This document shows, piece after piece, positions 1-20,143 of a stretch of DNA of 24,568 bases. The notes under the pieces were generated by a model. It worked only from the letters and a program-made list of their open reading frames with translations. It made no database searches and was not told the DNA's origin. Numbering within the stretch: the first letter of the stretch is position 1; each line of letters opens with the position of its first letter. The stretch is from Candidatus Hydrogenedentota bacterium. GTDB lineage: Bacteria; Hydrogenedentota; Hydrogenedentia; Hydrogenedentales; SLHB01. Position numbers and translations under genes: made by a program. The stretch is taken from assembly GCA_023384315.1 (NCBI GenBank), contig JAHDWY010000002.1, positions 1-24,568 on the forward strand. Direction: 5' to 3'.

Positions 1-2075
1 CGATCGTCCGGATCGATATCTAACGTTCGCGCGTAGGCGTCGATGTAATGCGCGACATTGCGATGGTTTTGAACGACGCCTTTCGGCTTTCCGGTGGAGC
101 CGGAGGTGTAGAGGATGTATGCAGGCGATTCAGGATCGCCATTTACGCCATCGTGCGAATCCAGGTGCTCAAACGATTCGATGGCGATCACCGGACAACG
201 TTCTCCGGCGATGGCACGTGCGCGCTCCAAAGAGGTATCCGTCGTGAGCAAGGTGCCGATCTGCGCGTCTTCGATCATGAATTGGAGACGCGCCTCGGGA
301 TAGGCCGCATCCATGGGAACGTAGGTCTTACCCGCTTTCAGCGCGCCAAGGAGCACGGCAATCATGGGCGCGTCGTGTTCAAACATCAAACCGACGCGCG
401 ACCCCACGGCGTATGTCGCCTCGAAAATACCTGATGCAATCTGAGACGCGCGCCGATCCAGCTCCGCATAGGTCCAACGGTGGTTTCGCGTGTGGACCGC
501 AATCGCGTCGGGGGTCGTCGCGGCTTGCCGCTCGAAACGCCGATGGAGCGGCGTTGCGCCGTCGAATGGGTCATCGCCTACCGGAATTGACTCGCGAGCG
601 GCCAGCGGTATATGGGCGACGGATGCGTCGGCCTGCGCGCAGATCGCGTCGAGTACTGCACCCAAATCACGCAAGAACTGCTGAATCGTTGATTCTTCAA
701 AAAGGTCACGGTTGTAGACCAGCATGAGCCGGGTCGTCGCGCCGCGAGGCCGCACGTAAAGGGTTAAATCAAATTTGGACTCGGGTTCGCGGCGGTAGAC
801 GCGTTCCACGGCGATATCGCCCATGTCAAGGCCATCGCCGCCCATGTTGATCATGTTGAACAGGACTTGGAAGACGGGCGTCCGGCTGAGGTCGCGTTCG
901 GGCTGAATCTCCTCCACCAACTTTTCGAAGGGGAGGTCTTCGTGCTCGAATGCATGCAGGACCGTATCGCGCGTCCGGCGCAGGAGCTTGCGGAATGTAG
1001 GGTTTCCCTCGAACCGCGCGCGCAGGGCTACGGTGTTGACGAAGAACCCGATCATGCCCTCCGTGCCGGGGTAGCGGCGTCCGGCGACCGGCGAGCCGAC
1101 AACAAAATCATCCTGGCCGGTGTACCGGTACAAGAGCACCTCGAAGGCCGCAAGCAACGTCATGAAGAGTGTCGCGCCTTCGTCTGCGCTCAATTTGCGA
1201 AGGGCGGCGATCGTCTGCGAATCCAGTTCCAGGTACTCGCGACCGCCGCGGAACGTCTGGTATGCGGGACGGGGACGGTCTGTCGGCAGTTCAAGCGGCG
1301 GCGGCGGCCCGGCCAGTTGTTCCCGCCAGTACAGCACGCGCTCGTCCATGTCGTCGTCGAGCCAGGCGCGTTGGATACGCGCGAAGTCGGCGTACTGGAG
1401 CGGAAGCGCATCCAGATCGGGCAAGCGTCCTTCCGAGAAACTCTCGTAGTGCTCCGCCAACTCGCGCAACACGACGCGCATGCTCCACCCGTCCGCGACA
1501 ATGTGATGGAGCACGACCGACAGGACGTGCACGTCCGGCCGCAGCCGGATAAGATACGCGCGCATGAGCGGGGCATTCGACAAATCAAACGGCGTGCGCG
1601 TAAATGCGTCCACCTGTTGCCGGAGACGGCATTCCTCGTCGCCCGGGCCTTCGTCGAGCGTGCACTGGGCGACGGCGAAACTGACGTCCTGCGCGATCAC
1701 CTGCACCGGCTGGTCGTTGAACGCGGCAAAGGACGTGCGCAGCGTTTCGTGGCGTTGCACGATGGCACACAGACTTTGCTCGAGCGCGGCGACATCCAGC
1801 GCGCCCGTGAGCCGGTAGGTCAGGTGCATGTTGTACGTCGAACGGCCCGGCTCGAGCTGATCGAAGAACCAAAGGCGGCGTTGCGAATAGGAAGCCGCGG
1901 CATGCTTGCGGCGTTGGCCGAGTAACGGCGCGATCTCCGGCTTGCGCGCTTTCAATGCATTGCGCAGTTCGGCGGAGAGGCATCCTTTCGGCGCGCGCAG
2001 ACACAGCTCATCCCCTTCCGCCCAGATGTGGGCGCCCCTCGCGATGACCTCTGCAAGGAGGGCGGCCGCGGTCAT
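1..2075 (-). CDS. Non-ribosomal peptide synthetase, N-terminal part (TubC_N docking domain - condensation domain - start of adenylation domain); runs off the window
   Basis: Not in the ORF track; translated by hand from ATG at 2075, and all motifs checked fall in this frame. N-terminus [52 protein letters not shown] (TubC_N-like). C-domain motifs ASYSQRRLWFFDQL, RHETLRTSF, PFDLSNAPLMR, HHIVADGWS (HHIVADG at 1488-1508), LPTDRPRP, GFFVNTVALR. A-domain motifs WTYAELD, LKAGKTYVPMD, YILYTSGSTGKPKGV (about 75-119). At least 691 codons. Confidence 0.95.
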   Translation of the reverse strand, partial: MTAAALLAEVIARGAHIWAEGDELCLRAPKGCLSAELRNALKARKPEIAPLLGQRRKHAAASYSQRRLWFFDQLEPGRSTYNMHLTYRLTGALDVAALEQSLCAIVQRHETLRTSFAAFNDQPVQVIAQDVSFAVAQCTLDEGPGDEECRLRQQVDAFTRTPFDLSNAPLMRAYLIRLRPDVHVLSVVLHHIVADGWSMRVVLRELAEHYESFSEGRLPDLDALPLQYADFARIQRAWLDDDMDERVLYWREQLAGPPPPLELPTDRPRPAYQTFRGGREYLELDSQTIAALRKLSADEGATLFMTLLAAFEVLLYRYTGQDDFVVGSPVAGRRYPGTEGMIGFFVNTVALRARFEGNPTFRKLLRRTRDTVLHAFEHEDLPFEKLVEEIQPERDLSRTPVFQVLFNMINMGGDGLDMGDIAVERVYRREPESKFDLTLYVRPRGATTRLMLVYNRDLFEESTIQQFLRDLGAVLDAICAQADASVAHIPLAARESIPVGDDPFDGATPLHRRFERQAATTPDAIAVHTRNHRWTYAELDRRASQIASGIFEATYAVGSRVGLMFEHDAPMIAVLLGALKAGKTYVPMDAAYPEARLQFMIEDAQIGTLLTTDTSLERARAIAGERCPVIAIESFEHLDSHDGVNGDPESPAYILYTSGSTGKPKGVVQNHRNVAHYIDAYARTLDIDPDD

Positions 2076-5000
2076 AAGCGCTCTTCCTCCAGTTCCTCTC
2101 CGGAACCGGCTATCACACGCGTGAGCGTTTCATTGGGCAGATCGTATTCTAGGATCGCGGAAATGCGCTGGGCCCAGTCGCCGAGACGGTTCGGCAGTTT
2201 CGCGCGCTTCCACGCGTCGGCAAGCGTCGGATCGATCGAGGTATGCTTCATGAAATTCGGATCGCCGATGGCACGTGCTTTCGCGCGCACGCCGTCGGTC
2301 ATGCGGCCTTCCCCGTAGGGATCGAGCACGGCGGGTTCGAACGGCACGTCGAGGAACGTGCACATGCCGCGCATGATGCGTTCGGGATCGGTAACGAGTT
2401 CCTCGTAGCGCACCGGGAACTGCCGCTCCTCCGGCACGCCTTTCAAGAACTCGATGGTATTCTCGTTGTGCGACGCCCACACCTCTTCCGCGAGCAGATA
2501 GGGATCGGCATGACCGAAGTCGAACATCTTCCCCGTACGATTCTTCACGTAGGATTCGATGACCGCGTAGGGATGGCGGTAGAGATAGATATACTTCGGG
2601 TTTTCAAAGAGATCCTCGGCGCGCTCCATGGTCTCGCGGCGGCCGGTGTAGGTCGGCGACTTGTCCACGAGCAGCTTGGGCGCCACGCTTTCCTGAAGCT
2701 GTGTGAACACGTCCTGGATGAGCGTGTCCTCCGCGAACATGCGTTCGATAAGCGCTTCCGCGGCGTCGGCATCGAGTCCCTGGGCTTCCATGAACGCGCG
2801 CTGAAGTCCGTCACCGAGGTAGTTGCCTTCGCCGAGGAACGTGCGGCGATCCTTCATGGAATGGAAATGAAGGATGTGCAATTCCGGCGGGCTGAAGAGC
2901 TGCGGGTGCCCTGCGAGCATCACACGCAATAGCGTTGAGCCGGACCGCGGCGCGGACAGCAAAAACGCGCAGGGCGGGTTCTTCCGTTCCGGTTTGGGCG
3001 GAGCGACGATCTTGCCCCTGGCCTTGTTGATGTTGGCTTGAATGAAGCCTTCCGGCGGCGGCGCTTCGCCTTCGCGCTTGCGCTGCATGATATCCAGCTC
3101 GGTGCCGATGTACTCGGCAAGACCCGCCAGCGAGGGCTGCTCAAATACCTCCCGAGGATGAATGCGGATCTTCAGATCGCGACCGAGATTGCGAATCAGG
3201 TCCATGACCATGATGGAATCGAGACCGAGATTGACCACGTTCTGGTCCACCGGCACCGCCGCGGGATCGGTGTGAAGCACTTCGCCGATCGAATTGCACA
3301 GTTGCTGTTCGATGAGCTTCCGGCGCGCCTCGCCTTCGGACTCGAGGATCTGCTTGCACCGCTCGCTCGGCACGGCGGACTTCTTCGCTTGGCCCGCGAC
3401 TTTGGACAGGAAGGGCGTGCCGTCCCCAGTGTCGAAGAGGGACTGAAGTGCCGGCCAGTCAGCGTCGACGACACCAACCTGCGCAAGATCGCGATCGAGA
3501 AGCATACCGAACGCGGCGAGACCTTCATCGGGATCGATGCTGGCAATGCCTTGTTGCGCAAGACGACCGCCGCGATCCGGCTGGGCCGCCATGCCCACTT
3601 CGGCCCATGGACCCCAGTTGATGCTGAGCGCGGGCAAACCGTTCGCGCGACGATGGACGGCCAGGGCGTCGAGGTACGCGTTCGCCGCGGCGTAGTTCCC
3701 CTGCCCCACGGAACCGAACATGGACGCGGCCGAGGAGAACAACACGAAGAAGTCGAGTCCCGTGTCCGCGAAGGCGCGGTGAAGATTCCACGCGCCTGCG
3801 ACTTTCGAGCGGCCTACGGTTTCGAAGGACGCGGGGTCCATGTCGTGGATGAGCTGATCGTCGAGTACGCCCGCGGCGTGAATGACGCCACGAATCGCCG
3901 GCCACTGTTCATCGCGGTATTGCGTCAGAAACGCGGTGAACCGCGCGGCGTCCGACACGTCAACCGCGGCGACGTGCACGGATGCTCCCGCGGCCTCGAG
4001 TTCGCGAACGGCGGCGATATTCTGACCGGCGCGGCACGCGGGATCGACCTTTGACCAGTCGTTGCGCGGCGGCAAGGCCGTGCGCGCCAGCAGTACGAGG
4101 CGGCGCGCGCCGTTTTGCACCAGCCAATGCGCCAACTTGATTCCGAGGCCACCGAACCCGCCCGTGATCAAATACGCGCCATCGGCGCGAAACGCTACGT
4201 GCGGCGACACCTCAGTCTCAGCAAGGGGACTTACGCGCGCCCCGAAGCGATTTGCCGCTCGCAGGGCGACCATGCTCTCGCCATCGTGCGCGAGCAATTC
4301 GTCGGCCAGGCTCGAAACAGGGCGATCTTTCGCCACGTCGATCAACTTACCCATCACGTCCGGGTGTTCCAGCGCGATGCACCGGCCGAGCGCCCACAAT
4401 GGGGCCTGCGAAAGATTAGGCAGTTCGCCTTCGGCAATCGCCTGGGCGGATTGCGTCACGATGTACAGGCGCGGTGCGGTCGTCGCGAGCGCGCGTTTCG
4501 CGAGCGCTTGTGCGACGAGTAATGTGCTGCGGCAAGTTGCCGCAAATTCGTCGAGTGCCTTGTTTCCATCTTCAGCTTCGGTTCGAGCGCACTTCGGCAA
4601 TACAATCACGCCGGGGCGACCGGTGCCATTCGCGTTGAAGGCGACGTCCAGGCTCTTGTCGATATCTTCCGCACGGACCGATCCGGCGGCCGTTGCAGCA
4701 AGTCCGCGCGCGGTGAGTTCGGCGACAAGTCCGCGCGAGAATTCGTCGTCTTCACCGAACACCAGCCAAGGGCCTGAGTCGTTCGTTCGCGCGGCTTCGG
4801 GAAGCGATTCCCACGCTACCGTGTGGAACCAGCCTGCAAGTTTGGCGCGTTGCTCTTCGCTGATTGCTGTGGATGTCGCGCCATCGCTGACCCGGCCGCC
4901 CAAGGCCTGAACGATGTCGTTCGACGCACCGGGCTTTACCGTGAACCAATGGCGCTTGAGTTCGAATGGGTACGTCGGCAGGGCAACGCGACGGCGCGGA

Positions 5001-8000
5001 TGATCCGTATCGAAGGCCTGCCAGTCGAGTTCGACGCCGTTGACCTGCAAGGTCGCAGCGGCGGTAAGCAACGTGCGCCAGTTGTCCGCGTCTTTGCCGA
5101 GCGAAGGAAGCCAAGTCGCTTCTGTGTCCGGCAGGCATCGGCGGCCCATGCCGATAAGGGTGTTGGCCGGGCCAACCTCGAGGAACACCGATACGCCATG
5201 ATCGGCGAGGGCCTTCATGCCGCCTTCGAACAGCACGGCGTCGCGAATATGATCGCGCCAGTATTCGGCGTCCAGCGTCTCCCCGCATTCGAGCGTCTTG
5301 CCGGTGCGGTTCGACACAAGCGGAATGGTGAGCGGCTGGTAGCGGACTTCTTTGGCCACCGCGTGGAACGCATCGAGTATCGGGTCCATCAAGGGCGAGT
5401 GGAAGGCGTGGGACACGGTCATCTTGGTGCACCGGACGTCTTGAGCGGAGAACTGTTCGACGATGGCATCGAGCGCGTCGCCCACGCCGGACACAACGAC
5501 CAGGTTCGGACCATTCACGGCGGCAATCGACAGGGCCTTCTCCTGCCCTTTGAGCGCGGCGGCGACTGTCTTGTGATCCGAGAAGATGGCCGCCATCTTT
5601 CCGCCGGCCGGAAGCGACTGGATGAGGCGCCCGCGTTCCGCGATGAGCCGCAGTCCGTCTTCCAGACTGAACATACCGGCGAGGCACGCGGCGGCATACT
5701 CGCCGACGCTGTGGCCAATCACGTAGTCAGGAGTTATGCCCCAGGAGCGCCAGAGTTCCGCGAGCGCATACTCAAGCGCGAAGAGCGCCGGTTGCGTGTA
5801 CGCGGTTTCGTTGATGGGTGATTCGGCCCCCTCCCCTGGGTACAGGATGGAGAGCAGCGGCTGCTCCAAATAGGGCCGGAGAATCGCGTCGCAACGGTCG
5901 ATGGTCGCCCGGAACGCCGGTTCGGTTTCGTAGAGTTGCCGTCCCATTCCGGCGAACTGGGCGCCCTGTCCCGTAAACAGGAACGCAAGCTTCGGCCGGA
6001 ATCCGGAGCGCACCGTGCCACGGATGACATTGGGCGCGGCTTCACCTTGCGCAAAACGGTTGAGCGCGTCGCGTAGCACATTTCCGGAGCCTTCGGTTTC
6101 CAACGGTTCCGTGAGAATGGCCAGGCGCTGTTCGAAAACGCAGCGCGTCGTGTTTGTGGAATAACAGAGGTCCCGGATCGCGGCGGCATCCTGAAGATCG
6201 CGGGACGCGTAGGAACCTGCAAGTTTCTGCAGGGCCGTTTCCGTGCGCGCGGACAGAGTCAGCACGTGGCGGGGCCGATCGGACTGCGAAGTCTCAGCGT
6301 GCGCGGGGGTCACAGGCGCTTCTTCAAGCACAACATGACTGTTCGCGCCGCCGAACCCGAAGGCGCTGACTCCGGCGAGTCGGCGTTTCGATCCGCGCGG
6401 CCAGGGCAGCGGTGCCGTCGGAATCTGGTACCGGGTCTCGTCCAGCTTGATAAGCGGGTTTACCTTGTCCAGGTGCAGATGCGGCGGAATTGTCTCGTGC
6501 TGCAGCGCGAGGACGGCCTTGATAAGCCCAACGATGCCTGCCGCGGGCTCCAGGTGCCCCACGTTCGTCTTGGCCGAAGCAATGGCGCAGGTGTTGCCTT
6601 CGTCACGTCCGTCGGACAGGACCGTTTGAATCGATTCAATCTCGATGGGATCGCCAAGCGAAGTGCCCGTACCGTGGGCTTCAAGGTAGGAGATCTCCGA
6701 AGGCGCGACGGCAGCGTTCTCCAATGCGGCGCGAATCACCGCCTGTTGGGCCTTCGTACTTGGCGCGGTGAGGCCGTTGCTGTGCCCGACGTGATTCACC
6801 GCCGTTCCGCGGACGACCGCGAGCACGTTGTCACCGTCGGCCAAGGCGTCGGATAGGCGCTTCAACACGACCAACCCGCATCCTTCGCTGCGCACGTAGC
6901 CGTTCGCCGCCGCGTCGAAAGCCTTACACCGCCCGTCCGGCGCAAGCATGCGCGCCTGCGACAAGGCAATGGTCGCCAGCGGCGACAGGATGACGCTCAC
7001 GCCACCGGCGAGGGCGACGTTACATTCGCGGTCGCGCAGGCTCTGGCAGGCCTGATGCAAAGCAACCAGTGCGGATGAACAGGCGGTATCGACGGAGACG
7101 CTGGGACCACGCAGGTCGAGCAAATAGGAGAGACGGTTCGACGCGATGGACTGCGTGTTGCCGGTGGCAACGTAGGCGTCGTTCTCCGCGCCGAGCAGCA
7201 GTTGAAGTTGCATGTAGTCGATGGACGAAACGCCGATGAAGGTGCCCGTGGCCGAACCGGCTAGACGGTCGGCGCGGACGCCGGCATTTTCAAAGGCCTC
7301 CCAGGCCACGTGTAAAAGCAATCGCTGTTGGGGATCCATACTGGCCGCTTCACGGGGGGAGATGTTAAAGAACGCGGCGTCGAACTTATCAACGTCCTCT
7401 ACGAAGCCGCCCCACTTCGTGATCATGCGGCCCGGCGTTGCCAGATCGGGATCGTACAGCGTATCGAAGTTCCAGCGATCCGCGGGAATCTCCCGTATCG
7501 CATCGCCACCATCGCGCAGCAACTCCCAGAACGCGTCCGGGTTCTTCGCGCCGGGAAACCGGCAACTCATACCGACGATGGCGATGGGTTCACCGTGGGT
7601 GCGGGAATTCGTATTCGTCGCGTCCGGCGACCACGTGCCGGAAAGATGGCGGGCCAGGGCGTCGATACAGGGATACTCGTAGACCAAAGTGGGCGAAAGC
7701 GTGCGCCCGACGACGCGCTCCATATCGGCCGCGAGTTCGACAGCGGCCATGGAATGGAGCCCGAGGCTCGAGAAGGGCTGGCGGATGTCCACCTGTGCCG
7801 CGTCGACGTTCAGCCGAAGGGCGATGCGGTGCGCGAGATACTCGCGCAGGTGCAGGTAACTCTTGCCCGCATTCGCCGACGCCGCATGCGGCACGTTCGC
7901 TGGAACCCGATCGTCAGCCGAGGCATCGGCGATCGATCTGCCGACCAGGGGCAGCGATTCGTCCAGAAACGCTTTGCGGCATGCGCGGCGCTGAATCTTG

Positions 8001-9619
8001 CCGCTCGACGTTTTCGGAATCGACCCCGGTTGAACCAGCAGCACTGCATGCACCGGCACTTCGTGCTGCTCGCCAACCGCCGCGCGAATCGTAGCCGCAA
8101 CCTGCTCCACATCCAGCCCATCGACGGCATCGCGCGCGACTTCCTGGGCGACGACGAGCAATTCGCCGCGTGCGTCTTCAATCGCGAAAGCCGCTCCGCA
8201 TCCCGGGCGCAGCGCGGGATGGCACGATTCGACCGTGAGTTCGATGTCCTGGGGATAATAGTTGATCCCGCGAATGATGATGAGATCTTTGAGACGCCCC
8301 GCAACGAAGAGTTCTCCGGCCTGCAGGATTCCGAGATCGCCGGTGCGCAGGTAAGGGCCTTCGCCGCCATCCGCAAGGGTTCCCCAGAAGGTGGCGGCCG
8401 TCTCGTCGGGGCGGTTCCAATAGCCCGACGCGACGCTGGGCCCTTTCACCCAAATCTCGCCGACCTCACCATCCGGACGGGGCAGGCAAGTATCGGGCGC
8501 GACGATTCGAACATCCTGATCGGCTGCTGGAGAACCGCAGCCCACAAGCGTCCGAATCCGTGCGTTGTCTTCCGGGAACTCGCGTACCGCCATGCTGCCG
8601 CCGCGACGCGCAAACGATACCGCAAGCGTGGCTTCGGCAAGGCCGTAACAAGGGAGAAACGCGTGGCTCCGGAATCCGGCGGAATTGAATTTCTGCGCAA
8701 AGGCGTCCAGCGTACCCGGCCGAATCGGTTCCGCGCCGTTAAACGCCACGCGCCATGCGCTCAGGTCCAAAGCGTCTCTATCGTCGTTGCTAATCTTGTC
8801 CACGCAAAGTTGATAGGCAAAATTTGGCCCGCCGCTGACGGTCGCGCGCCGCTGGCTCAAGGCTTGCAACCACGAGGCGGGTTGCTTCAGGAAGTGCAAG
8901 GGCGACATAAGCGTCGAATCGCAACCGACAAAGGGCGGAATCAGCACGCCCGCCAGCAAACCCATGTCATGGAACTGGGGCAGCCAACTGAGCACATGAT
9001 CGTCCGCGGAAAGCCCCGTCGCTTCGCGTATGTAAGCGCAGTTGTGAAGCAAATTGCCGTGGGTCACCATCACGCCCTTCGGCGCTGATGTGGAACCCGA
9101 AGTGTATTGCAGGAACGCGAGATCCGTTGGCGCGACATCGGGGTTGCGCCACGCGTCCGGGTCAGCTTCACTGGCGTCGGTCGCGACCCAACGCAACCCC
9201 GCAAGCGCGGGTTGCTCCTGGAGCAGCATCTGCGCCGCTGCCAGGTACTCCGAAGTGGTTAACGCCAGCGTCGCCTGGGCGTCCGCAAACATCGCGAGGA
9301 GCCGCCCGAGCGTCCTTCCGGGGCGTGGAGGATAGGCAGGGACCGCCGTAACACCGGCGTAGAGGCAGGCGTAAAATGCGACGTTGAACTCAATGCCGGG
9401 TGCAAAGAACAAGAGGGCGCGATCGCCCGGTTTGCTGACGAACTGAAGTTCCGCCGCAACGGTGCGCACACGCTCTTCGAATTCGTGGTAGCAGACGTTA
9501 TGCGTTATGTCTGATCCGGAAGCGATTAGCGAGAAGATTATGGAATCCGGTTGCGCCGCTGTCCGCTCGGCGAGAACATCGATGAAGTTCCGGGTTCTGC
9601 TCAGGGGAAACTTCTCCAA
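2072..9619 (-). CDS. Type I PKS: FAAL-ACP-KS-AT-KR-ACP-sulfotransferase (Ols/CurM-like, no thioesterase)
   Basis: FAAL: [52 protein letters not shown]1: LGLHS (Ser623). KS: DTACSS (Cys847), [17 protein letters not shown]: GHSVG (Ser1304) and HAFH (malonyl type). KR: [11 protein letters not shown] (B-type), YAAAN (Tyr1976). ACP2: LGLDS (Ser2135). ST: [29 protein letters not shown]. The TTG start at 9619 is uncertain. Confidence 0.95.
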
Positions 9620-9928
9620 ACGGGGCCGCCGTCAAGCTACCCTTGGTGTTGCAGCGCCATCACTCTCCGGCAACCCGCCTAGATTCGGAGCATGCGCTAA
9701 CCTATATAAATGCCGCGAGCCGTCGCCCGCGACCTATACGAATCCGCCGCGCATACCATGCGCGTGGGCCGCTTACGCCGCTGCCAAAGCGGCAACTGAT
9801 GTAGTGAATCCCCCCGAAAGGCCGACCGTCAGAAGTCGCCTCCCAAATATTGACGGCCAAGTAACGCAGTGTACAACAGCTCGTGGGCGGGAAATTTACG
9901 GCGATTCCCACATCCTCGACCAGCACCA

Positions 9929-9959
9929 ATTATACTCTACTCCGCGATTCGCATTACAA
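9929..9959 (-). promoter_or_regulatory. Candidate sigma70 promoter for the PKS-NRPS operon
   Basis: Perfect TATAAT on the minus strand (plus-strand attata, 9929-9934) in an AT-rich stretch. TTGTAA lies 19 bp upstream, which is a suboptimal spacing. Confidence 0.3.
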
Positions 9960-10165
9960 TTACCGGCTATACAGGGGTTCCTTAAGGCAAGGATACTACA
10001 TATTGTGCGGAAATACCAGCATGTACAGCCTCAAAAACACTAAATTAGCGTAATCGAAGCGATCTCCAAACCGCAATTTCGTCAATTATTTCCCTTAAAA
10101 CTCGAAAGATGTTACCAAAATGAGCCGACTCGCTTCAAATTGGACGACAACCATGAATTTTGGTT

Positions 10166-12031
10166 TCAGGTATTCCGCGAAGGTTCCGAGGGCTCCATAC
10201 CCAGGAGGGCGCGAATCTCAGCATCGAGAATTTGCCGAATGGCGGATGTGACGGGTAGGGCGGGAATTGTTGTCGTCCCTCCAACCTCGGGCAGCGTCAT
10301 GGGCTTGTACGCGCGATTCTGCCAGGAGTACCAGCGAAGCGACTCGCTTTCCAGGGGACGGTTGAAATCGAAGCGGACGTGGACCGGGCGTCCGTCGTAG
10401 TTGACGCCAAGCACCGTCACGCGCATGCCGTCCGTTTCCACGACCTGACCGGCCTCCATGGCGGACACGGGCAGCCGGCAGAAGAAGAACGACCAAGGGT
10501 ACTCCATCCAACCTTCAGGGATCGAAAGTTCCAATACGCTTTCGCTTGGCCGATGGGCGACGATCTCCCGGTTGCCGCTGTAGAGGACCCACATGGATTT
10601 TGGAACGGGCTGCCCCTTGGCGGAACGGAGCAGGGGCAACATGGCGTACATGATGTCGCCCGTCGCGTTAACGATGATGAGCCGGTCGTCCTTCAATCCG
10701 TCGTCGCGCGGCAGGCTCTCGTTGCCAACGTCAACGATCTTCCCTACATAGTGCATAGAGTACGCATTCGCCGGAAGCATGATGGGCGACACGATCAGAT
10801 GAAGGAGAATCAGGAACCCGGCCGCGAATCGCAACGTCAGCGGCTTGCGCGATCCGTCCGTGAACCACGTCGTTCGATCCGAAACACCGCCCAGGAAAGC
10901 GCCAAGCAGCCCCATCCCGCCGATGCCGACGAGCATGAGCAAGCGATACTGGGGAACGGACGAGCAGTAGGGAATCGCGCACAACGCCATGCCTGCCGCG
11001 TAGAACCGGGCCGCACGATTCGCGCGGAGGAGCGGCCAGAACAGCCACGTCAGCAGAACGACAATTCCCGCGGCGAAGGCGATGTAGAGGCCAGTCCACA
11101 AAGGCGGCAGCAGCGTGTGGTAGATGGGGTCCGGAAACATGAACTGGGAATAGAGCAGCACCGGAAAAAACTTGATGACGGCGAAAACAAAGCCAACGGG
11201 ATCGGCAACGGGATCGGTGTAGAAGCTCGATGCGGTAACGCCGTACCCGAACCACGAATAGAGGATTCGCCAGATCACAACGATGACGGCATAAGGCACG
11301 AGGGACAGCAGACGCGCGCGCCACGGCGCGGGGTCCATGAAGCACGCATACGCAAACAGATAACCGGTCACGGCCACGGTGCCCTCGCCGGAGAAGAGTC
11401 CAAGTGCGAGCATGATCCCTGCCAGGGCACCGCGGCTCGAGTTACCGGTCTGACGCCAGCGGTCGTGTGCCAGCAGAACAAACACGGCAAACATGGCGGA
11501 GAGGATGGCGTTGCGGTTGGAAAGCCAACTCACGGAAAGACCGTGCGCGGAATCCACGGCGAAGAGCAGGCCCGCCAAACCGGCGACCCATGCAGGAGAT
11601 ATGTGGCGTTGGTAGAGGCGCGTCGTGGCGAAGGCGAGGACACCGTAGAGCAGCATGCTGTGGAGATGCATGATCCAGGTGTGGCTTCCCCAGAGGATGA
11701 AATCGAGATAATGGCTGAGGGATGAAATCGGCCGCCAGAAGGAGATTTTCCATTCGGGGTCGGCCCACCAGGGAACGATGCCGCGAGCGAGATACTTCTC
11801 GTACTCTTCCGGAGTACCCTTGCCAAAGGAAAAGGTGTCGAGCGTGGCGTTGTCGACCTCCGGCAGCCCGGGCGACCCCATGAACACGGCGCTCCAGTAA
11901 TAGTCGTCCGTGACGCGGCCCACGAGCAACGACGACGCGGTCAATACGCAGGCGATGATGGCGATCATCCACGCGGCGCGCGTTCCATGAACGCGCGTAA
12001 ACCGTGCTCTTAGAATGGATAGCCCAGTCAT
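10166..12031 (-). CDS. Polytopic membrane protein, probable GT-C fold glycosyltransferase (ArnT/PMT/TMTC-like)
   Basis: About 621 aa from ATG 12031, many hydrophobic segments. Acidic DDY motif after the first TM helix, a WRPISS motif, and LLFAVDSAHGLSVSWLSNRN resembling the LLFAVHP...W...R segment of TMTC/PMT-like GT-C enzymes. Soluble C-terminal domain. Confidence 0.65.
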   Translation of the reverse strand: MTGLSILRARFTRVHGTRAAWMIAIIACVLTASSLLVGRVTDDYYWSAVFMGSPGLPEVDNATLDTFSFGKGTPEEYEKYLARGIVPWWADPEWKISFWRPISSLSHYLDFILWGSHTWIMHLHSMLLYGVLAFATTRLYQRHISPAWVAGLAGLLFAVDSAHGLSVSWLSNRNAILSAMFAVFVLLAHDRWRQTGNSSRGALAGIMLALGLFSGEGTVAVTGYLFAYACFMDPAPWRARLLSLVPYAVIVVIWRILYSWFGYGVTASSFYTDPVADPVGFVFAVIKFFPVLLYSQFMFPDPIYHTLLPPLWTGLYIAFAAGIVVLLTWLFWPLLRANRAARFYAAGMALCAIPYCSSVPQYRLLMLVGIGGMGLLGAFLGGVSDRTTWFTDGSRKPLTLRFAAGFLILLHLIVSPIMLPANAYSMHYVGKIVDVGNESLPRDDGLKDDRLIIVNATGDIMYAMLPLLRSAKGQPVPKSMWVLYSGNREIVAHRPSESVLELSIPEGWMEYPWSFFFCRLPVSAMEAGQVVETDGMRVTVLGVNYDGRPVHVRFDFNRPLESESLRWYSWQNRAYKPMTLPEVGGTTTIPALPVTSAIRQILDAEIRALLGMEPSEPSRNT

Positions 12032-12217
12032 CGGATCCCGTCGTTGGTGGATGGTAATGATGCAGCACACCCAACCGCATGCGTGACGAAGACTGATCGA
12101 ATCCCCGGCGGAGGGTGCGGACACGTCGCGACATGATACCGGATTCGCGCCGGAAGAGTACAGATAACCGTTACTGTCGCGAGAACAAAATCCCCGTCCC
12201 AGTCGGACGCCGGATAA

Positions 12218-12312
12218 ATCGCTATCGGTATCGCTATCGGGTTCGGGTTCGAAAAAGGTACGTAGGGTGTCTCAGATTTCGATACCGATTCCGATCCCGA
12301 TAGCGATACCGA
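12218..12312. repeat. Inverted repeat built from degenerate ATCGNN hexamers
   Basis: Left arm atcgct atcggt atcgct atcggg ttcggg ttcg; right arm cgatac cgattc cgatcc cgatag cgatac cga. 12225-12241 is the perfect reverse complement of 12296-12312 (17 bp). Confidence 0.9.
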
Positions 12313-12315
12313 ATT

Positions 12316-12345
12316 CAAGCGGGGCGCCCGGAGGCGCCCCGCTTG
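12316..12345 (-). terminator. Strong hairpin just downstream of the HEAT gene
   Basis: 13-bp perfect stem caagcggggcgcc/ggcgccccgcttg. The minus-strand loop UCCG is closed by C-G (UNCG class). It lies 7 nt past the stop codon, with no long U-tract. Confidence 0.7.
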
Positions 12346-12352
12346 GAGAAAG

Positions 12353-14332
12353 CTATCCTTGAATCTTGCTTTTGATTTGTTCCGTGGCCTGCGCGGCTTC
12401 TGCCTTCACTTCCTCGTCCGCGAGGTAAGGCTCAACCAATGCGAGGGCGCGTTCGTCACCGATCTCGGCGAGACCCGCGAGCACCAGCCGTTTGTCGTCG
12501 GCGCTGGCCGCGAGTTTGGAGGCCTCCTCGTACAGCGCAAGGGTCTCCTCAACGGGCCGGTCGCCGCCCTGACGCAATAGACGCAGGAATCCGCGGAATG
12601 CGAGGGTCTTGTGCGTGTTGTTGTCGGAGTTCGACGCGATCTGGCGCAGATCGTCGAGTGCATCCGCCGTGGGCCAGTCGGCCAGAGCCTTGACCGCCGC
12701 GTCTTTGACGGGATCGGCTTTTGCAGACGCTACCAGGTCACGCAACTGCGGCAACGAACTCGGGTCGGCGATGCGTCCTACTACCCGGACCAGCGATGCA
12801 CGAACTTCGGGCTTACCCTTGATCGTGGAGAATGCCTGCGCGATCTGTTGCGCGCCTTTCTGCGGCGGATCGATCCGTTGCACCGTCGATACGACGGCGT
12901 TTTCCGCGGCCGTCTGCGACGGATCGCCATTGACCTTAACGAGAAGATCGACCAAGGCCGCGAGGTCGCTTCCGTTCGCCAGTGCGCCCAAGGCGTCGAA
13001 GGACGCGTTGCGAACCGATTCGTCCTGGTCCGACGCTGTTTGAAGGAGTGTCGGGATTGCAGACTCGGCTCCGCGCGTCGCCAGGGCCTGAATCAAAACG
13101 GTCTTTGCGGGACTATCCGCGCTCTGCATGGCAGTGACGATCACGCCGTCCACGTCGTCGCCGCGGAGGGCGCCGAGCGTGGCGCGGGATACGCGCGCGA
13201 CTTCCGCGTCATCCGACATAGACAAGGCGGCCAACTGCGAAACGGAGGACGCGTTGCCGACGGTGGCCAAGGCTTCGAGCGCCGCAATCTTCACGTCCGG
13301 ATCGCTGCTGTCCAGCGCAGCCGTGACGGCCGGTAGCGCTTCCCCATCTTCGCGCGCGCGCAGGGCGTACAGCGCGACAAGTTGACCGTGGGGGTCGAGC
13401 TTGGGAAGTGCCGACGCCAACTCCGCGGTGACCTTTCCACCTTCGAGGTTGCGCAACGCACCTGCGGCAATGGCTTGAAGACCCGCGTCGCTCCCTTTCA
13501 ACAGTTCAATTAACATCGGCAGAGAATCGGCGCCTTCAACGGCGACCAGGCCTTCGATGGCGGCGATATGGGCCTCACGCGATTCGGCGTCGCTATTCAG
13601 CTCCGCGTAGATCGCCTTCGCCTTCCCCTTCTGCCCGTTCTGCACGTAGTTCGACGCGCACATGAGGTAGCCATTCGTGATGGCCGGCTTGAGTTCTTCC
13701 GATGCGCTGCCACGCGCCTTTGCCAGGGCGTCAGCGGCCTTCTCGCCCCCAATCCGGCCGAGCGCCGTCGCGGAGGCCTTCGCAACTGCCGGGTCTGGAT
13801 CGTTCAGAAGGGTAGCGAGATCGGCAACGGCTTCTTCCTGCCCACGCATGCCGATGGAATTGATGATGCCGACCTGTACGCGGTCGTCGGCGTTTCCAAG
13901 GGCGGTCAACAGCGCGTCATCGGCGGCTTCACCCTCGATGCTTTCGAGGGCGTAGCGGGCCATGTCCGAGTGCTTCTCGTCGGTCAACATTTTCGCCAGC
14001 GCGGGTACGCTCGCGTCCGTGCCGATGACGTAGAGCTGACGGCACACGAAATCCTTGCAGTCGTACGTGGCGTCCGACCCGAGGATCTCGATGAGCCCCT
14101 GCTCGATCTGCTGGCGCATGGCGGCGTCGCCGTAGGACTTCGTGCAGTAGTCCTGCACGACGCTGAGCATCTCGCGGTTCTGGCCGAACTCGTAGGTGCG
14201 AATTTGCTGAAGCGCATCCGGCAGCGACGGCGTATCCTGCGCGAGGGCCGGCATACCCGCAACGACCGCCACTAACGCCGCAACCATGGCCCATCCGGCG
14301 CGGCTGTTTTTTTGATTGATTACGCGAATCAT
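12353..14332 (-). CDS. Secreted HEAT-repeat (PBS lyase-like) protein
   Basis: 659 aa from ATG 14332 with a purine-rich RBS (GGAAGGAAGGGA). Sec-type signal (…VAGMPALA|QD). Repeated motifs such as VAKASATALGRIG and VKIAALEALATVG. Confidence 0.88.
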   Translation of the reverse strand: MIRVINQKNSRAGWAMVAALVAVVAGMPALAQDTPSLPDALQQIRTYEFGQNREMLSVVQDYCTKSYGDAAMRQQIEQGLIEILGSDATYDCKDFVCRQLYVIGTDASVPALAKMLTDEKHSDMARYALESIEGEAADDALLTALGNADDRVQVGIINSIGMRGQEEAVADLATLLNDPDPAVAKASATALGRIGGEKAADALAKARGSASEELKPAITNGYLMCASNYVQNGQKGKAKAIYAELNSDAESREAHIAAIEGLVAVEGADSLPMLIELLKGSDAGLQAIAAGALRNLEGGKVTAELASALPKLDPHGQLVALYALRAREDGEALPAVTAALDSSDPDVKIAALEALATVGNASSVSQLAALSMSDDAEVARVSRATLGALRGDDVDGVIVTAMQSADSPAKTVLIQALATRGAESAIPTLLQTASDQDESVRNASFDALGALANGSDLAALVDLLVKVNGDPSQTAAENAVVSTVQRIDPPQKGAQQIAQAFSTIKGKPEVRASLVRVVGRIADPSSLPQLRDLVASAKADPVKDAAVKALADWPTADALDDLRQIASNSDNNTHKTLAFRGFLRLLRQGGDRPVEETLALYEEASKLAASADDKRLVLAGLAEIGDERALALVEPYLADEEVKAEAAQATEQIKSKIQG

Positions 14333-14358
14333 GGTTCTATTCCCTTCCTTCCAGACGC

Positions 14359-15705
14359 TCAGACGCGCCACGGCGCCCGCAACGAGGGCATCAGCATGTT
14401 GTTGGCTTCGGCGTCGTTGATGAATTGTTCCTTGTCCGGGTCCCATTCGAGTTTGCGCCCCAGCAGCATGGCTATATTCGCGATGTGGCACATGGTCGCC
14501 GTTCGGTGGCCGACCTCGGGCGGCGCCATACACTCCCCGCGGACCTTCACGTTGTTCAGGAAATCGCGGTGGTGTCCAGGGCTTCGTCCGAGATGCTCCT
14601 CGTTGGGTCCGATGATCTCCTTGAGCAGCGACGCGGGTTCGGCCTCGAGGTTGCCGCCGTGGATGTGGATGAACACCCAGCCGTCGGTGCCCTCAAACTT
14701 GATCCCCCGGGTGCCGCCGCATTTGCAGATCATCTTCACGCCATTCGGATACTCGAAGGTGAACTCGTAGTCCATGGCGGTGTTGAACATGCCGTCGCGC
14801 GGAAAGTCGCCCCAGCCTTCGATCGACTTGGGACCGCTCCGGTCGCTCGCGTTGCCGAGCTGGCCGAGATCGATGATGTGGGCGCCGCGGTCGGTCACTT
14901 CGCCGCCGGAGTAGTCGAGAATGTACCGGAACCAGAAGTGGCAGCGTTTCTCCGTGTAGGTTGCCCAGGGGCGCGGGCCGAGCCACATGTTGTAATCAAA
15001 TCCTTCCGGGATCGGCATGGGCGGCTGATTCTCGAGCGGCCCGTGGTTGTCGATGGGAAGGTTTACATGCATGGTGTGCAACTTGCCGATGCGCCCGTTG
15101 CGCACCAGTTCGCAGGCGTAGCGCGCGTTGCTGCGGCTGCGCTCGTGACTGCCGGTCTGGAAGACGCGTCCGTAGCGCTTCACCGCGTCAACCACAGCGC
15201 GGCCTTCGCCCACCGAGTTCGCAAGCGGCTTTTCGCAGTACATGTCCCTCCCGGCCTCCGCGGCGGCCACCGCAATCACGGCATGCCAGAAGTCCGGCGT
15301 GCAGATGCACACGGCGTCGATGTCTTCGCGCGCGAGAACTTCACGAAAGTCATTGTACGAATTACACCCGTTGTATTGCCCGCTCTGCGTCTGCGTCGCG
15401 TAGGTCTCATCGACGAGTTGCTGCGCGGCATCGCGATGATCGCAGTCCACGTCGCACACCGCGAGAACCTGCGCATCCGCCTGCCCCAGGAAGGCGCGCA
15501 GGTTGGCGGTGCCCTGGCCACCTACGCCAATGGAGGCCACCGTGATGCGATTGCTCGGCGCCACGGTCCCGTCCAGCCCCAGCGCGGACGCGGGCACGAT
15601 GTAGGGGAAACCGACCGCGCCCGCCGCAGCCAAAGCTCCCCGCTTCATGAACTGGCGCCGGCTCAACCCGGTTTTCGCGACGCCGGTCTTCTTGCTCCTC
15701 TTCAT
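14359..15705 (-). CDS. Gfo/Idh/MocA family NAD(P)-dependent oxidoreductase with Tat signal
   Basis: LSRRQFMK twin-arginine motif, IGVGGQG Rossmann motif, TPDFWH, YCEKP, FQTGSHERS, WLGPRP; RBS AAAGGAGA. Confidence 0.92.
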   Translation of the reverse strand: MKRSKKTGVAKTGLSRRQFMKRGALAAAGAVGFPYIVPASALGLDGTVAPSNRITVASIGVGGQGTANLRAFLGQADAQVLAVCDVDCDHRDAAQQLVDETYATQTQSGQYNGCNSYNDFREVLAREDIDAVCICTPDFWHAVIAVAAAEAGRDMYCEKPLANSVGEGRAVVDAVKRYGRVFQTGSHERSRSNARYACELVRNGRIGKLHTMHVNLPIDNHGPLENQPPMPIPEGFDYNMWLGPRPWATYTEKRCHFWFRYILDYSGGEVTDRGAHIIDLGQLGNASDRSGPKSIEGWGDFPRDGMFNTAMDYEFTFEYPNGVKMICKCGGTRGIKFEGTDGWVFIHIHGGNLEAEPASLLKEIIGPNEEHLGRSPGHHRDFLNNVKVRGECMAPPEVGHRTATMCHIANIAMLLGRKLEWDPDKEQFINDAEANNMLMPSLRAPWRV

Positions 15706-15784
15706 GATTGTCTCCTTTGAACGCTCACTCGATCTGCTCCCTCGGGGAGTTCAAAATTCGAAATATGTCGGGAAGGTACCACTC

Positions 15785-16159
15785 TCATTCAGGCGGAATG
15801 ACAGCGCCGGTATCGGCATCTACTTTGACCGCATGGTCGAGGTAGAATTTGGCCGACATCGCAGGATAAGACTCCTTAACAACGTGATAGTATCCGTTCC
15901 GAAGCGAAACAATAATTCGCGTTTCAGAGTCCTCACCTCTTGGAAGATCGCTGTCCTTGTTGCGTAAGTCATACGTCGTGTCCAGGTATGGACTCGCCAA
16001 ATCAACCGCTTCAGATGGCTGCACGTGCACTCCGTCTAAAACTTTGTAGCCACTTATTGAATTTCCCACATCCGTGGTTTTGCATCCATAAAAGATGAAC
16101 ATTAGGGAGAGCAAGCCGAGAACCGTTACAATTCCCTTTGGCCGGTTCAGAACCAACAT
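15785..16159 (-). CDS. Small low-GC putative lipoprotein with PepSY-like motifs
   Basis: Hydrophobic N-region ending IFYGC (lipobox-like), VQPSEAVDLA, and C-terminal VKVDADTGAVI. Start is ATG 16159 (GAGGA 9 nt upstream) or 16168. Hand-counted lines give about 43-47% GC versus about 70% in a neighbouring gene. Confidence 0.6.
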   Translation of the reverse strand: MLVLNRPKGIVTVLGLLSLMFIFYGCKTTDVGNSISGYKVLDGVHVQPSEAVDLASPYLDTTYDLRNKDSDLPRGEDSETRIIVSLRNGYYHVVKESYPAMSAKFYLDHAVKVDADTGAVIPPE

Positions 16160-16220
16160 CTTGCGCATTCCTCTCGTATCGCCGTTATCCTTTAAGGCTT
16201 CCTGAAATCTAATTTCTCCC

Positions 16221-17558
16221 TCAAACACTCCACGGCGCGCGCATGGAACGCGAAAGCACTCTGTTTGCTTCCTCGTCGCCCTCGAACCGTTCTAGTTCGG
16301 GGTACCATTTCAGGCCGCGCCCCAGCAATAACGCGATGGTTCCCACGTGGCACACGGACGCCGACCGATGCCCGATCTCGATGGATGCCGCGGTCTGGCC
16401 ACGGGTCTTGATGCAGTGCAGGAAGTTCCCGTGGTGGTTGTCGCTGGCGTAAAGACGTATCTCGTTCGGGCCCACCGCCGCTTCGGCAACCTTCTCAGGA
16501 TACGCTTTGATGGCGTCGCTTTCCACATACAGCCACCCCTCGCTTCCTTCAAAGCGCATGCCCCATTGGGACGTGTCTTCGGTGGCGGTGGAAATCATCT
16601 TGACGCCGTTGGCGTAGGTGAACTCGATGCGATGGTCGATGGGCGCGTCGTAGATGCCTTCTTCCGGGAACACGCCGGTCGCTTCGATGGCGACCGGGCC
16701 GGAATGGTCGGTGCCGTTGCCCCATTGGCCGATGTCGTAGTAATGGGCGCCCCAGTCGGAGATGTAGCCCTCCGAGTAGTCCATGATCCATCGGAAATTG
16801 AAATGGCACCGGCCCGGCGTGTACGGCGCCCAGGGAGCGGGACCAAGCCACAGGTCGTAGTCGAACCCCTCGGGGACCGGCTGCGGCGGCGTGTTCGGAC
16901 CATACTCGCCGCCGCGAATGGCGAAGCCTTTGGGCACGCCGATGTGGATTGTCTGGAGTTCGCCGATGTAGCCGTTGCGGACCAGCTCGCAGGCGCGGCG
17001 GCAACCCTCGCGGGAGCGACGCCAAGTACCCGTCTGCAGCACGCGGCCGTATTGCTTCACCGTATCCACCATGGCGCGGCCATCCGCGACAGTCAGCGAG
17101 ACCGGCTTCTCGCAGTAGATGTCTTTGCCGGCGCGCGCGGCGGCGACGGTAATCACCGAATGCCAGTGATCCGGCGTTCCTATTGAAACCGCATCGATGT
17201 CGTCACGTTCGATGATCTCGCGGAAGTCCGTATACGTGGCGCAGCCGGTGTCGCCGTAGTGTTCGTCCACGATCTTCTTGGCGGCGGCGCAGCGTCCCGC
17301 GTCGACGTCGCACACGGCGACCACCTGCGCGCCCGCTTGCGCGAGGAACGCGCGCATGTTGCTCGATCCCTGACCGCCGACGCCAATGCAACCGATGGTA
17401 ACCCGATTGCTCGGGGCCGTTTTGTCGTCCGCGCCCAACGCGGACGCAGGAATGACGGTGGGAATTCCCGCCATCGCGGCTGCGGTCGCGGAGGTTCTCA
17501 AAAAACTTCGGCGGGATACGGTGGTTTGCGATAGAGATGTTGCTGCGCACTTCTTCAT
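16221..17558 (-). CDS. Gfo/Idh/MocA family oxidoreductase with Tat signal (paralog of 14359-15705)
   Basis: Start MKKCAA at 17558. VSRRSFLR, IGVGGQG, GTPDHWH, YCEKP, LQTGTWRRS, WLGPAP, DWGAH; C-terminal RAPW shared with the paralog. Confidence 0.92.
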   Translation of the reverse strand: MKKCAATSLSQTTVSRRSFLRTSATAAAMAGIPTVIPASALGADDKTAPSNRVTIGCIGVGGQGSSNMRAFLAQAGAQVVAVCDVDAGRCAAAKKIVDEHYGDTGCATYTDFREIIERDDIDAVSIGTPDHWHSVITVAAARAGKDIYCEKPVSLTVADGRAMVDTVKQYGRVLQTGTWRRSREGCRRACELVRNGYIGELQTIHIGVPKGFAIRGGEYGPNTPPQPVPEGFDYDLWLGPAPWAPYTPGRCHFNFRWIMDYSEGYISDWGAHYYDIGQWGNGTDHSGPVAIEATGVFPEEGIYDAPIDHRIEFTYANGVKMISTATEDTSQWGMRFEGSEGWLYVESDAIKAYPEKVAEAAVGPNEIRLYASDNHHGNFLHCIKTRGQTAASIEIGHRSASVCHVGTIALLLGRGLKWYPELERFEGDEEANRVLSRSMRAPWSV

Positions 17559-17563
17559 CGACT

Positions 17564-17986
17564 TCAAATTCCTGCTCCACAGTTCGGGCAACGGTGCACG
17601 CTGCTGTCGACTCGCGTGCCGCAATAGGTGCACTCGCCATATTGAGATTCCGGCGAATGCATCGCGATATTGTCGGGCTCCGGACGATAAAGTTCCACCG
17701 GTTCCGGTTCGTCATGAACGACGGTGTCGGGCGTCCCCCCCTTTGCAAACGCGACGACGACTGACACAAAACCACTGATGGCTACGATGGCGAACCCGAC
17801 GCCAAACAGTGTGAAGATGAATGGCGCGCCCATCGCGCGCGCCGAGGTCGTCCAGAAGAACGCAAAGCCGATGACCATCAGCATGATTACCATGCCGGGG
17901 ATCAGCGCGAGGCGGCCGCCTGGCGGGTTGCCGCGCGAAGCGCCGTAGTGCATGCGTACCCGCTGTCTTCGATGCCGTCGTCCCAT
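17564..17986 (-). CDS. Small two-TM membrane protein with C-terminal zinc ribbon
   Basis: Two hydrophobic segments followed by CTYCG-x8-CPNCG. It fits tightly between prpD (2 nt gap) and the oxidoreductase (5 nt gap). Confidence 0.75.
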   Translation of the reverse strand: MGRRHRRQRVRMHYGASRGNPPGGRLALIPGMVIMLMVIGFAFFWTTSARAMGAPFIFTLFGVGFAIVAISGFVSVVVAFAKGGTPDTVVHDEPEPVELYRPEPDNIAMHSPESQYGECTYCGTRVDSSVHRCPNCGAGI

Positions 17987-17988
17987 GC

Positions 17989-19509: not shown

Positions 19510-19660
19510 CCGCCTCCGTGCAATACGCGGTTCGCAGCGATTGGGCACCGTGAGACGCGTAGTATTGCACTTGAAGAAAGGTAATTCCAGAGCGGAAACG
19601 CATTCGTCCCCTCAGAGACGAACTTTCGCGCTTGCCGGGCTGGTGCCCGGTGCACCCGGG

Positions 19661-20143
19661 TCAGCGGCGGTTGGCGTGGACGAGTTCGTCGAGGCGTTGC
19701 AGGAAACGGGAGCGGTCGGCCTTCGCGAAGGGGGCCGGACCACCGGTCATGGTCCCGTGTTCGCGCATGTGAGACAGGATTTCGCGGGTCGCGAGGGCGT
19801 CGCCGATGGAGGCTTCGGTGAACACACGGCCCTTGGGACCCAGCGCGGCCGCGCCCTGTTTCAAACACCGCGCAGCAAGCGGGATGTCTGCGGTCACCAC
19901 GATGTCCCGTTCGCGGACATGCTCGACGATCCAATCGTCCGCGGCATCGAAACCATCATCGACAACGACGAGTTCAATCCCGTCTTCTTCGGGAACGCGT
20001 ATCCACGCGTTGGCAACAAGCACAACCCGCAGCCCGTAGCGTTTGGCCACGCGATAGACCTCGTCCTTGACCGGGCAGCCGTCCGCGTCGACAAAGATCG
20101 ACGGCGACGTGGGTTCCTCCGAATGCGCGTCGCGGACGGTCAT
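19661..20143 (-). CDS. yaiI: YaiI/YqxD (UPF0178) family protein
   Basis: [42 protein letters not shown]. Confidence 0.9.

Follow-up and report, generated by a model that had tools for sequence, protein, structure and literature searches.

The locus and its two genes

The window analysed here, 24,568 bases of DNA from a Candidatus Hydrogenedentota bacterium, is the whole of contig C453 in a genome of 899 contigs (72.8% complete, 60% G+C). Its minus strand carries, at positions 2072-9619, a single uninterrupted frame for a polyketide synthase (PKS) of 2515 amino acids, and the end of this gene overlaps the start of a gene for a nonribosomal peptide synthetase (NRPS) which, the window being an entire contig, is cut at its end. 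The two genes make up what may be an assembly line for a sulfated lipopeptide. The PKS ends in a sulfotransferase (ST) domain of the family found in the alkene-forming enzymes CurM and Ols, without the thioesterase (TE) that follows the domain there, and with a short acidic tail in its place.

Pfam matches, accepted at E <= 0.001, together with NCBIfam matches, order the PKS as fatty acyl-AMP ligase (FAAL), acyl carrier protein (ACP), ketosynthase (KS), acyltransferase (AT), ketoreductase (KR), a second ACP and ST. Chance is out of the question for the domain calls at this locus, since their E-values lie between 1e-12 and 1e-108. The protein begins with a FAAL-ACP loading didomain. FAAL occupies residues 19-557 (positions 7949..9565, minus strand, as for all domains below) and combines PF00501 (AMP-binding, 19-401) with the DIP2-like C-terminal domain PF23024 (445-557); its top NCBIfam matches are fatty-acid--AMP ligase families, though under the whole-protein cut-offs of those families. 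The loading carrier, ACP1, follows at about residues 590-660 (7640..7852), a PP-binding domain with Ser623 in GLHS (620-623). A complete KS-AT-KR-ACP extension module comes next. Its KS (residues 677-1050, 6470..7591; PF00109 and PF02801) has the Cys/His/His set in DTACSS, EAHGTG and NVGHLE, and its AT (1213-1530, 5030..5983; PF00698) has GHSVGE and, at 1404-1407, HAFH, a motif that indicates malonyl specificity. The KR (1814-2007, 3599..4180; PF08659) is of the B type, with VLDD at 1918-1921 providing the LDD signature and YAAAN at 1976-1980, and ACP2 (2105-2171, 3107..3307; PF00550) has Ser2135 in GLDS (2132-2135). Counting those of the ST described below, every catalytic motif needed to load a chain, extend it once with malonyl, reduce it as a B-type KR does and sulfate it is intact.

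Dehydratase (DH), enoylreductase (ER) and TE domains have no match in the 2515 residues, nor does the Pfam search find an FkbH domain in this protein. The PKS is collinear with the cyanobacterial Ols up to the end of the ST, at 43% identity, and stops where Ols enters its TE. A protein from a Candidatus Hydrogenedentota metagenome-assembled genome at NCBI matches it exactly over residues 2090-2515 (the ACP2-ST part) and is 94.6% identical over the full length. A preliminary description of this DNA had proposed the order FAAL-ACP-KS-AT(HAFH)-KR(LDD)-ACP-ST, with DH, ER and TE absent, and both statements are borne out by the Pfam domains and the motif positions. It had also placed the stop about 20 residues after the ST: the short C-terminal stretch is there, but aligning the ST with that of CurM gives it 15 residues.

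A conserved sulfotransferase without its thioesterase

Directly after ACP2, residues 2196-2500 (2120..3034) form an ST of the CurM/Ols type, delimited by phmmer against crystal chains; Pfam sees Sulfotransfer_3 at 2218-2429. The match to the CurM ST (4GBM; E 2.8e-98, about 60% identity) and that to the Ols ST (4GOX; E 6.7e-84) both extend over the whole chain. The motifs expected of this family are in place: PRSGST at 2224 (the PAPS loop, for 3'-phosphoadenosine-5'-phosphosulfate), PPELH at 2244 with Glu2246 and His2248, VDKSP at 2318, RHPY at 2348 and GDPNF at 2452. The Glu and His of PPELH, conserved throughout, are presumably the catalytic residues. All 14 relatives that likewise lack a TE keep these motifs, down to about 50% identity, and in a tree of 136 ST domains they form one clade (SH-aLRT 100), which adjoins a clade of KS-AT-KR-ACP-ST-TE proteins with a weak support of 85. 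Because the motifs have survived to this depth within a single, firmly grouped clade, the TE-less state is, on phylogenetic grounds, old and maintained, and neither a recent truncation nor an assembly artefact. An inactive ST, which would have undermined the preliminary description, finds no echo in the sequence, where no degeneration is visible. Both the window's own genome (G000) and the related genome G001 have a gene for APS kinase, so that PAPS can be made. The ACP-ST-TE tridomain that defines the alkene-forming Ols/CurM family is incomplete here, the fused TE being absent, and for that reason the window PKS is not a member of it.

Predicted coupling of the polyketide synthase to the peptide synthetase

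The last 15 residues (2501-2515, 2075..2119), ending in EEERL, are a short linear motif conserved in the clade. The pattern [E/D]x[E/Q][E/D]ER[L/I/V]-COOH is near-invariant in the 14 TE-less relatives and missing from proteins where the ST is fused to a TE or to a condensation (C) domain, while discrete ACP-ST proteins bear a similar tail of the IEEGRL type. At positions 2072..2075 of the minus strand the PKS stop codon (TGA, 2072-2074) and the NRPS start codon (ATG, 2073-2075) share the bases ATGA and are read as translationally coupled, and the same four-base overlap is found at five related loci (L012, L016, L017, L018 and L021). The NRPS opens with a TubC_N beta-hairpin docking domain (NRPS residues 5-53, 1917..2063; PF18563, scoring 47.5 bits where the cut-off is 26). 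There is exactly one TubC_N domain in G000 and one in G001, each on the NRPS described here, and a second one, able to bring another partner to the tail, was not found in either genome.

Docking domains of this TubC type bind intrinsically disordered C-terminal motifs of fewer than 15 residues, chiefly by the last five of them and with the help of salt bridges (PMC9113145). The tail in the window is short and has its conserved charged residues in the last five positions, as in the motifs reviewed there, and so fits, to judge from its sequence, a ligand of a beta-hairpin docking domain. The short C-terminal motifs listed in that review follow carrier, oxidase and heterocyclisation domains, none of them an ST (PMC9113145). 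The conserved tail, its single TubC_N partner and the ATGA overlap fit together in predicting a physical coupling of PKS and NRPS; all the contexts that were looked at show such a tail paired with a docking domain.

The peptide synthetase

Behind the docking domain lie a C domain (residues 57-491, 603..1907; PF00668, E 3e-108; HHIVADG at 190) and the beginning of an adenylation (A) domain (residues 514-691, 3..536; PF00501) that the contig end interrupts and that continues in G001 and on contigs C391, C731 and C2 of the window's own genome. The overlap of the PKS with a docking-C-A synthetase, claimed in the preliminary description, can thus be read directly in the DNA and in the Pfam matches to TubC_N, Condensation and AMP-binding. 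Downstream sequence, to which that description had looked for an answer, exists for both genomes. G001, about 90% identical in DNA over most of the region, has the locus on a 305-kb contig, where the complete NRPS has 3527 amino acids and the order dock-(C-A-T)x3-TE (T, thiolation domain), with the motif GWSFG of a normal thioesterase. Pieces of the same NRPS, 88-95% identical, lie on C391, C731 and C2, which is why the picture seen in G001 applies to the window's genome as well. In both, the synthetase starts with dock-C and lacks a loading module.

The solved structures nearest to the first C domain are ordinary elongation types (Txo1/2, TycC) and not the starter C domain of surfactin. In a tree of 51 C domains the four docked first domains show a weak grouping (SH-aLRT 69-81) and stay outside the clade of C domains fused to an ST, a result that says little for or against a C subtype dedicated to sulfated donors. 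The pocket codes of the three A domains, extracted by anchoring on motifs, are DAMHVGLFTK, DAWTIAGVCK and DAWFLGNVVK. The codes serve as leads only: on that footing we take the second to be Phe-like and the third to be Leu. Across relatives the first amino acid would presumably vary, being Leu-like, Val-like, Tyr-like or not assigned, by codes of the same kind. A striking likeness of the first A domain to LgrA (511 bits) was rejected as a ground for calling glycine, the score adding up two distinct A-domain matches that reach about 255 bits apiece.

Recurrence and variants

Among 135 species-level genomes of the phylum, the TE-less gene is present in five of the five species of the window's genus and in other families as well. 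The unit in which a PKS stop overlaps a dock-C-A synthetase is kept in six other contexts, some of them with split ACP-ST proteins; the layout that the preliminary description advised looking for in genomes, a PKS protein that ends in ACP-ST before a TubC_N-C-A synthetase, is recurrent. The simplest forms, at L017 and L021, consist of the PKS and a one-module dock-C-A-T-TE synthetase; at L021 lepA and a signal peptidase gene come directly after the NRPS. Flanked by housekeeping genes as they are, such two-gene clusters have no extra enzyme for further chemistry. At L020 the line is split into FAAL, ACP-KS-AT-KR, a discrete ACP-ST of 479 amino acids (L020:8064-9503, minus strand) that ends in IEEGRL, and dock-C-A-T-TE. 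At L019 a discrete ACP-ST of 437 amino acids (L019:10153-11466, plus strand), with a tail of the same type, precedes a multi-module NRPS, with an MMPL transporter upstream and no FAAL, KS, AT or KR nearby. In both, a dock-C-A synthetase gene follows. What stays constant through these forms is thus a carrier-ST-tail unit together with dock-C-A. Homologues also include single proteins that run from FAAL through ST into C, or from KR-ACP-ST into C; the docked TE-less form, with a tail of its own, is one more variation on this uncharacterised theme.

Some more distant members have neighbours of the lysyl-phosphatidylglycerol-synthase type: LPG_synthase_TM near L017 (8402-9262, minus strand) and, at L018 (5933-8023, minus strand), LPG_synthase_C fused to a NAD-dependent epimerase/reductase, L018 having in addition a P450 and an ABC/FtsX exporter. 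These neighbours hint at a role in membrane lipids. The genus of the window also has a second ST-bearing PKS (G001:C18:63248-64117, and other genomes), of about 2270-2320 amino acids, with an ST about 51-54% identical to the one described here; its size and the similarity of its ST suggest a KS-AT-KR-ACP-ST-TE protein. Related Hydrogenedentes proteins with this domain order have a TE of the PF00975 kind and not of the alpha/beta-hydrolase kind of CurM. Elsewhere on the ST tree, a separate deep branch holds many NRPS proteins with two ST domains each (P0013-P0027, P0041, P0054, P0056), some ending in ST-TE, from Thermoanaerobaculia, Acidobacteriota, Thalassomonas and others; the same branch includes 'Iturin-like' proteins with an aminotransferase and two tandem ST domains.

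Flanking genes and the state of the contig

Upstream of the PKS by 540 bases and on the same strand, positions 10166-12124 code for a polytopic membrane protein of about 600-650 amino acids, without a Pfam match, which is syntenic at L012 and L016 and missing from distant clusters. The rest of the contig (12353-24566, minus strand) codes for a HEAT-repeat protein, two GFO/IDH/MocA oxidoreductases (one with a TAT signal), MmgE/PrpD, DUF4139 and DUF1638 proteins, ordinary flanking genes whose link to the cluster is not evident. The membrane protein, the HEAT-repeat protein, the two oxidoreductases and MmgE/PrpD were considered as parts of the system and left out, because they are syntenic only in close relatives and absent from distant clusters. 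On the other side, the NRPS of G001 is followed by a convergent alpha/beta hydrolase gene, then by housekeeping genes (accA, ispD).

Sequence identity to G001 differs along the contig. Positions 1-3300, which hold the NRPS start, the ST and ACP2, are 99.6-100% identical to G001 (compared with L012), and positions 3300-19978 are about 83-98% identical to L012, mostly about 90%. The difference suggests that lineages recombined recently at the ACP-ST/NRPS junction, or else that the contig is a chimera of co-assembled strains.

A proposed assembly line and its alternatives

How might these parts work together? FAAL would adenylate a free fatty acid and load it on ACP1; KS and AT would extend it once with malonyl-CoA onto ACP2; the B-type KR would give a (3R)-3-hydroxyacyl-ACP2, and the ST, using PAPS, a 3-sulfooxyacyl-ACP2. 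No fused TE comes next. The acidic tail would bind the docking domain of the NRPS, whose first C domain would move the acyl chain from ACP2 onto the first amino acid, two further modules would lengthen the peptide, and an ordinary type I TE would release it. The product of the two-gene line would be an N-(3-sulfooxyacyl) tripeptide, X-(Phe-like)-Leu, an anionic lipopeptide, and this is the reading that we hold to be, on balance, somewhat probable. In relatives whose NRPS has one module, N-(3-sulfooxyacyl) amino acids would result. We infer that condensation comes after sulfation, that a sulfated donor is acceptable to the C domain and that sulfate is kept on the released product, the last of these because the minimal clusters offer no further enzyme. 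The elimination carried out by CurM and Ols would be impossible after condensation, as the free carboxylate is then lost in an amide, and a sulfate retained after action of an in-line ST has precedent in OciA and DysB. The sequence of events set out in the preliminary description (FAAL loading, one malonyl extension, KR, ST, wiring to an NRPS) agrees with all the evidence that can be computed; retention of the sulfate lies beyond it.

Several points weigh against this proposal. The family is known from genes alone, from which product and chemistry are deduced, and nothing in the sequences fixes whether sulfation or condensation comes first. The A-domain codes, extracted by anchoring on motifs, are leads, and the first, DAMHVGLFTK, was matched to no amino acid. 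There is no signature of a C domain for sulfated donors, in so far as the docked first C domains and those fused to an ST form no strongly supported clade. Finally, the only known role of the STs of CurM and Ols is an 'activating' one, in which the sulfate they install is lost again (PMC11730487), and a close relative of theirs might for that reason serve to install a leaving group.

This last point opens a second possibility, the chief rival, unlikely in our view while retaining an appreciable chance, in which the sulfate is a built-in leaving group, eliminated or displaced during or after amide formation, the ST acting as a surrogate dehydratase or as an activator of cyclisation. An acyl peptide with a 2,3- or 3,4-double bond would result, or a ring, for instance a beta-lactam formed by attack of the amide nitrogen on C3. 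Such a role would suit an ST so close to the sole characterised STs of PKSs, placed in a module without a DH, in a clade that stands beside ST-TE clades on the ST tree. It sits less well with the minimal clusters, which are PKS plus C-A-T-TE with housekeeping flanks and no dedicated eliminating enzyme, or with the fact that a DH domain is the usual and cheaper route to an enoyl group; the decarboxylative route of CurM and Ols is closed once the carboxyl has become an amide, and the first amino acids predicted from the A-domain codes (Leu-, Val-, Tyr-like) are mostly non-nucleophilic. The narrower version, with the sulfate spent on-line after transfer to the peptide line, by elimination or ring closure (a beta-lactam, say) at a C or TE domain, is rather doubtful. 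It is also improbable that the intermediate on ACP2 is no substrate of the ST, this domain being silent, a scaffold for the tail, or directed to another hydroxyl, so that an ordinary 3-hydroxyacyl lipopeptide would result. Lipopeptides of that kind are common, catalysis is predicted here from sequence, and the Tyr-like first residue predicted in one relative would be an alternative hydroxyl. Against this stand the PAPS-binding and catalytic motifs conserved across a deep clade, the presence of APS kinase, and the discrete ACP-ST didomain maintained in split systems, which ties the ST to a carrier-bound substrate.

Could the system be an olefin synthase after all, a TE acting in trans hydrolysing the sulfated acyl-ACP2 to a terminal alkene while the NRPS is fed otherwise? 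The separate protein of the genus that is apparently KS-AT-KR-ACP-ST-TE lends the idea some colour, as does the alpha/beta hydrolase gene convergent to the NRPS end. That gene (motif GHSFGG), directly after the NRPS stop, is found in G001 (L014:17461-18438, plus strand) and in the window's own genome (C2:4785-5759), the two copies being 91% conserved. It was rejected as a CurM-like TE: its matches among solved structures are haloalkane dehalogenases and esterases, and its long, hydrophobic, signal-like N-terminal segment makes it probably an exported protein. Searches by tblastn with the ST-linked TEs of CurM, Ols and Hydrogenedentes gave nothing but generic matches (25-37% identity, spanning about 90-130 residues) and TEs that are fused parts of other synthetases, so that the TE in trans on ACP2 which the preliminary description had named as a danger to its reading was not found. 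Moreover, the tail has no second docking domain through which a TE could be recruited, and the NRPS, which starts with dock-C, has no other loading module. The architecture argues against a terminal-alkene product, and we regard this option as scarcely credible.

Consequences of a sulfate kept or spent

CurM/Ols-type STs of PKSs have so far been studied only within the ACP-ST-TE device that makes terminal alkenes. Here the same domain is fully conserved where alkene chemistry would not be possible: there is no TE, the carboxyl would go into an amide and the docking tail would recruit an NRPS. Should the sulfate stay, the genes would predict sulfated N-acyl amino acids and sulfated short lipopeptides as a product class in Hydrogenedentota and other uncultured groups, anionic lipids or surfactants of which we found no described example in the literature. 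If it is an on-line leaving group, this would be a new use of sulfation inside a PKS-NRPS, without a decarboxylating thioesterase. With only two genes, the minimal versions are compact enough to be expressed directly in another host, and the ACP-ST-tail unit could be a portable part, adding sulfate to engineered lipopeptides.

Comparison with known systems

Iturin/mycosubtilin and microginin/puwainaphycin starters use FAAL-ACP-KS and a domain that tailors the beta position, then pass the chain to an NRPS. They resemble the window's line in FAAL activation, a single extension, modification of the beta carbon and transfer to a C domain, and differ in that an aminotransferase makes a beta-amino acyl chain, whereas in the window KR and ST act on this position. 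The nearest counterpart of the PKS itself is Ols of Picosynechococcus PCC 7002 (with its Gloeothece PCC 7424 homologue, P0042), which has the same FAAL-ACP-KS-AT-KR-ACP-ST order, collinear at 43% identity, and an ST of the same family. Ols continues into a fused TE of about 290 residues, which hydrolyses and decarboxylates the chain and drives out the sulfate, the product being a 1-alkene (PMC11730487), whereas in the window protein a docking tail of 15 residues closes the sequence behind the ST and the chain would pass to an NRPS. A 2025 review of FAAL enzymes mentions ST domains solely in olefin synthases (PMC11837247). The terminal module of CurM in curacin A synthesis (KS-AT-KR-ACP-ST-TE) is close by its ST, about 60% identical with the same PAPS loop, Glu/His and DKSP, and by its B-type KR; it differs in lacking FAAL loading, in ending with a TE and in terminating its line, while the window's module starts one.

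For a sulfate that stays, the models are OciA (cyanopeptolin/oscillapeptin) and DysB (dysinosin), where an embedded ST sulfates a carrier-bound hydroxy acid that is passed to a C domain with its sulfate (PMC2533009, PMC6520454). Compared by description, these share with the window the order carrier-ST-C, which is here ACP2-ST-(dock)-C, and differ in using glyceric acid provided by an FkbH-type domain, on fused domains, where the window has a PKS-made 3-hydroxy fatty acyl chain and docked proteins. The junction recalls the docking pairs of TubC, EpoB, rhabdopeptide Kj12 and enacyloxin Bamb_5915, with an N-terminal TubC_N before C and a short charged tail upstream, except that the motif comes after a sulfotransferase domain. 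No characterised cluster of this layout, such as would have taken away the novelty assumed in the preliminary description, was found in the literature, MIBiG being outside that search. The system would work like Ols up to sulfation, then like a lipopeptide starter of the iturin or microginin type: every part is known and retained in-line sulfation has precedent, while the combination is undescribed and widespread.

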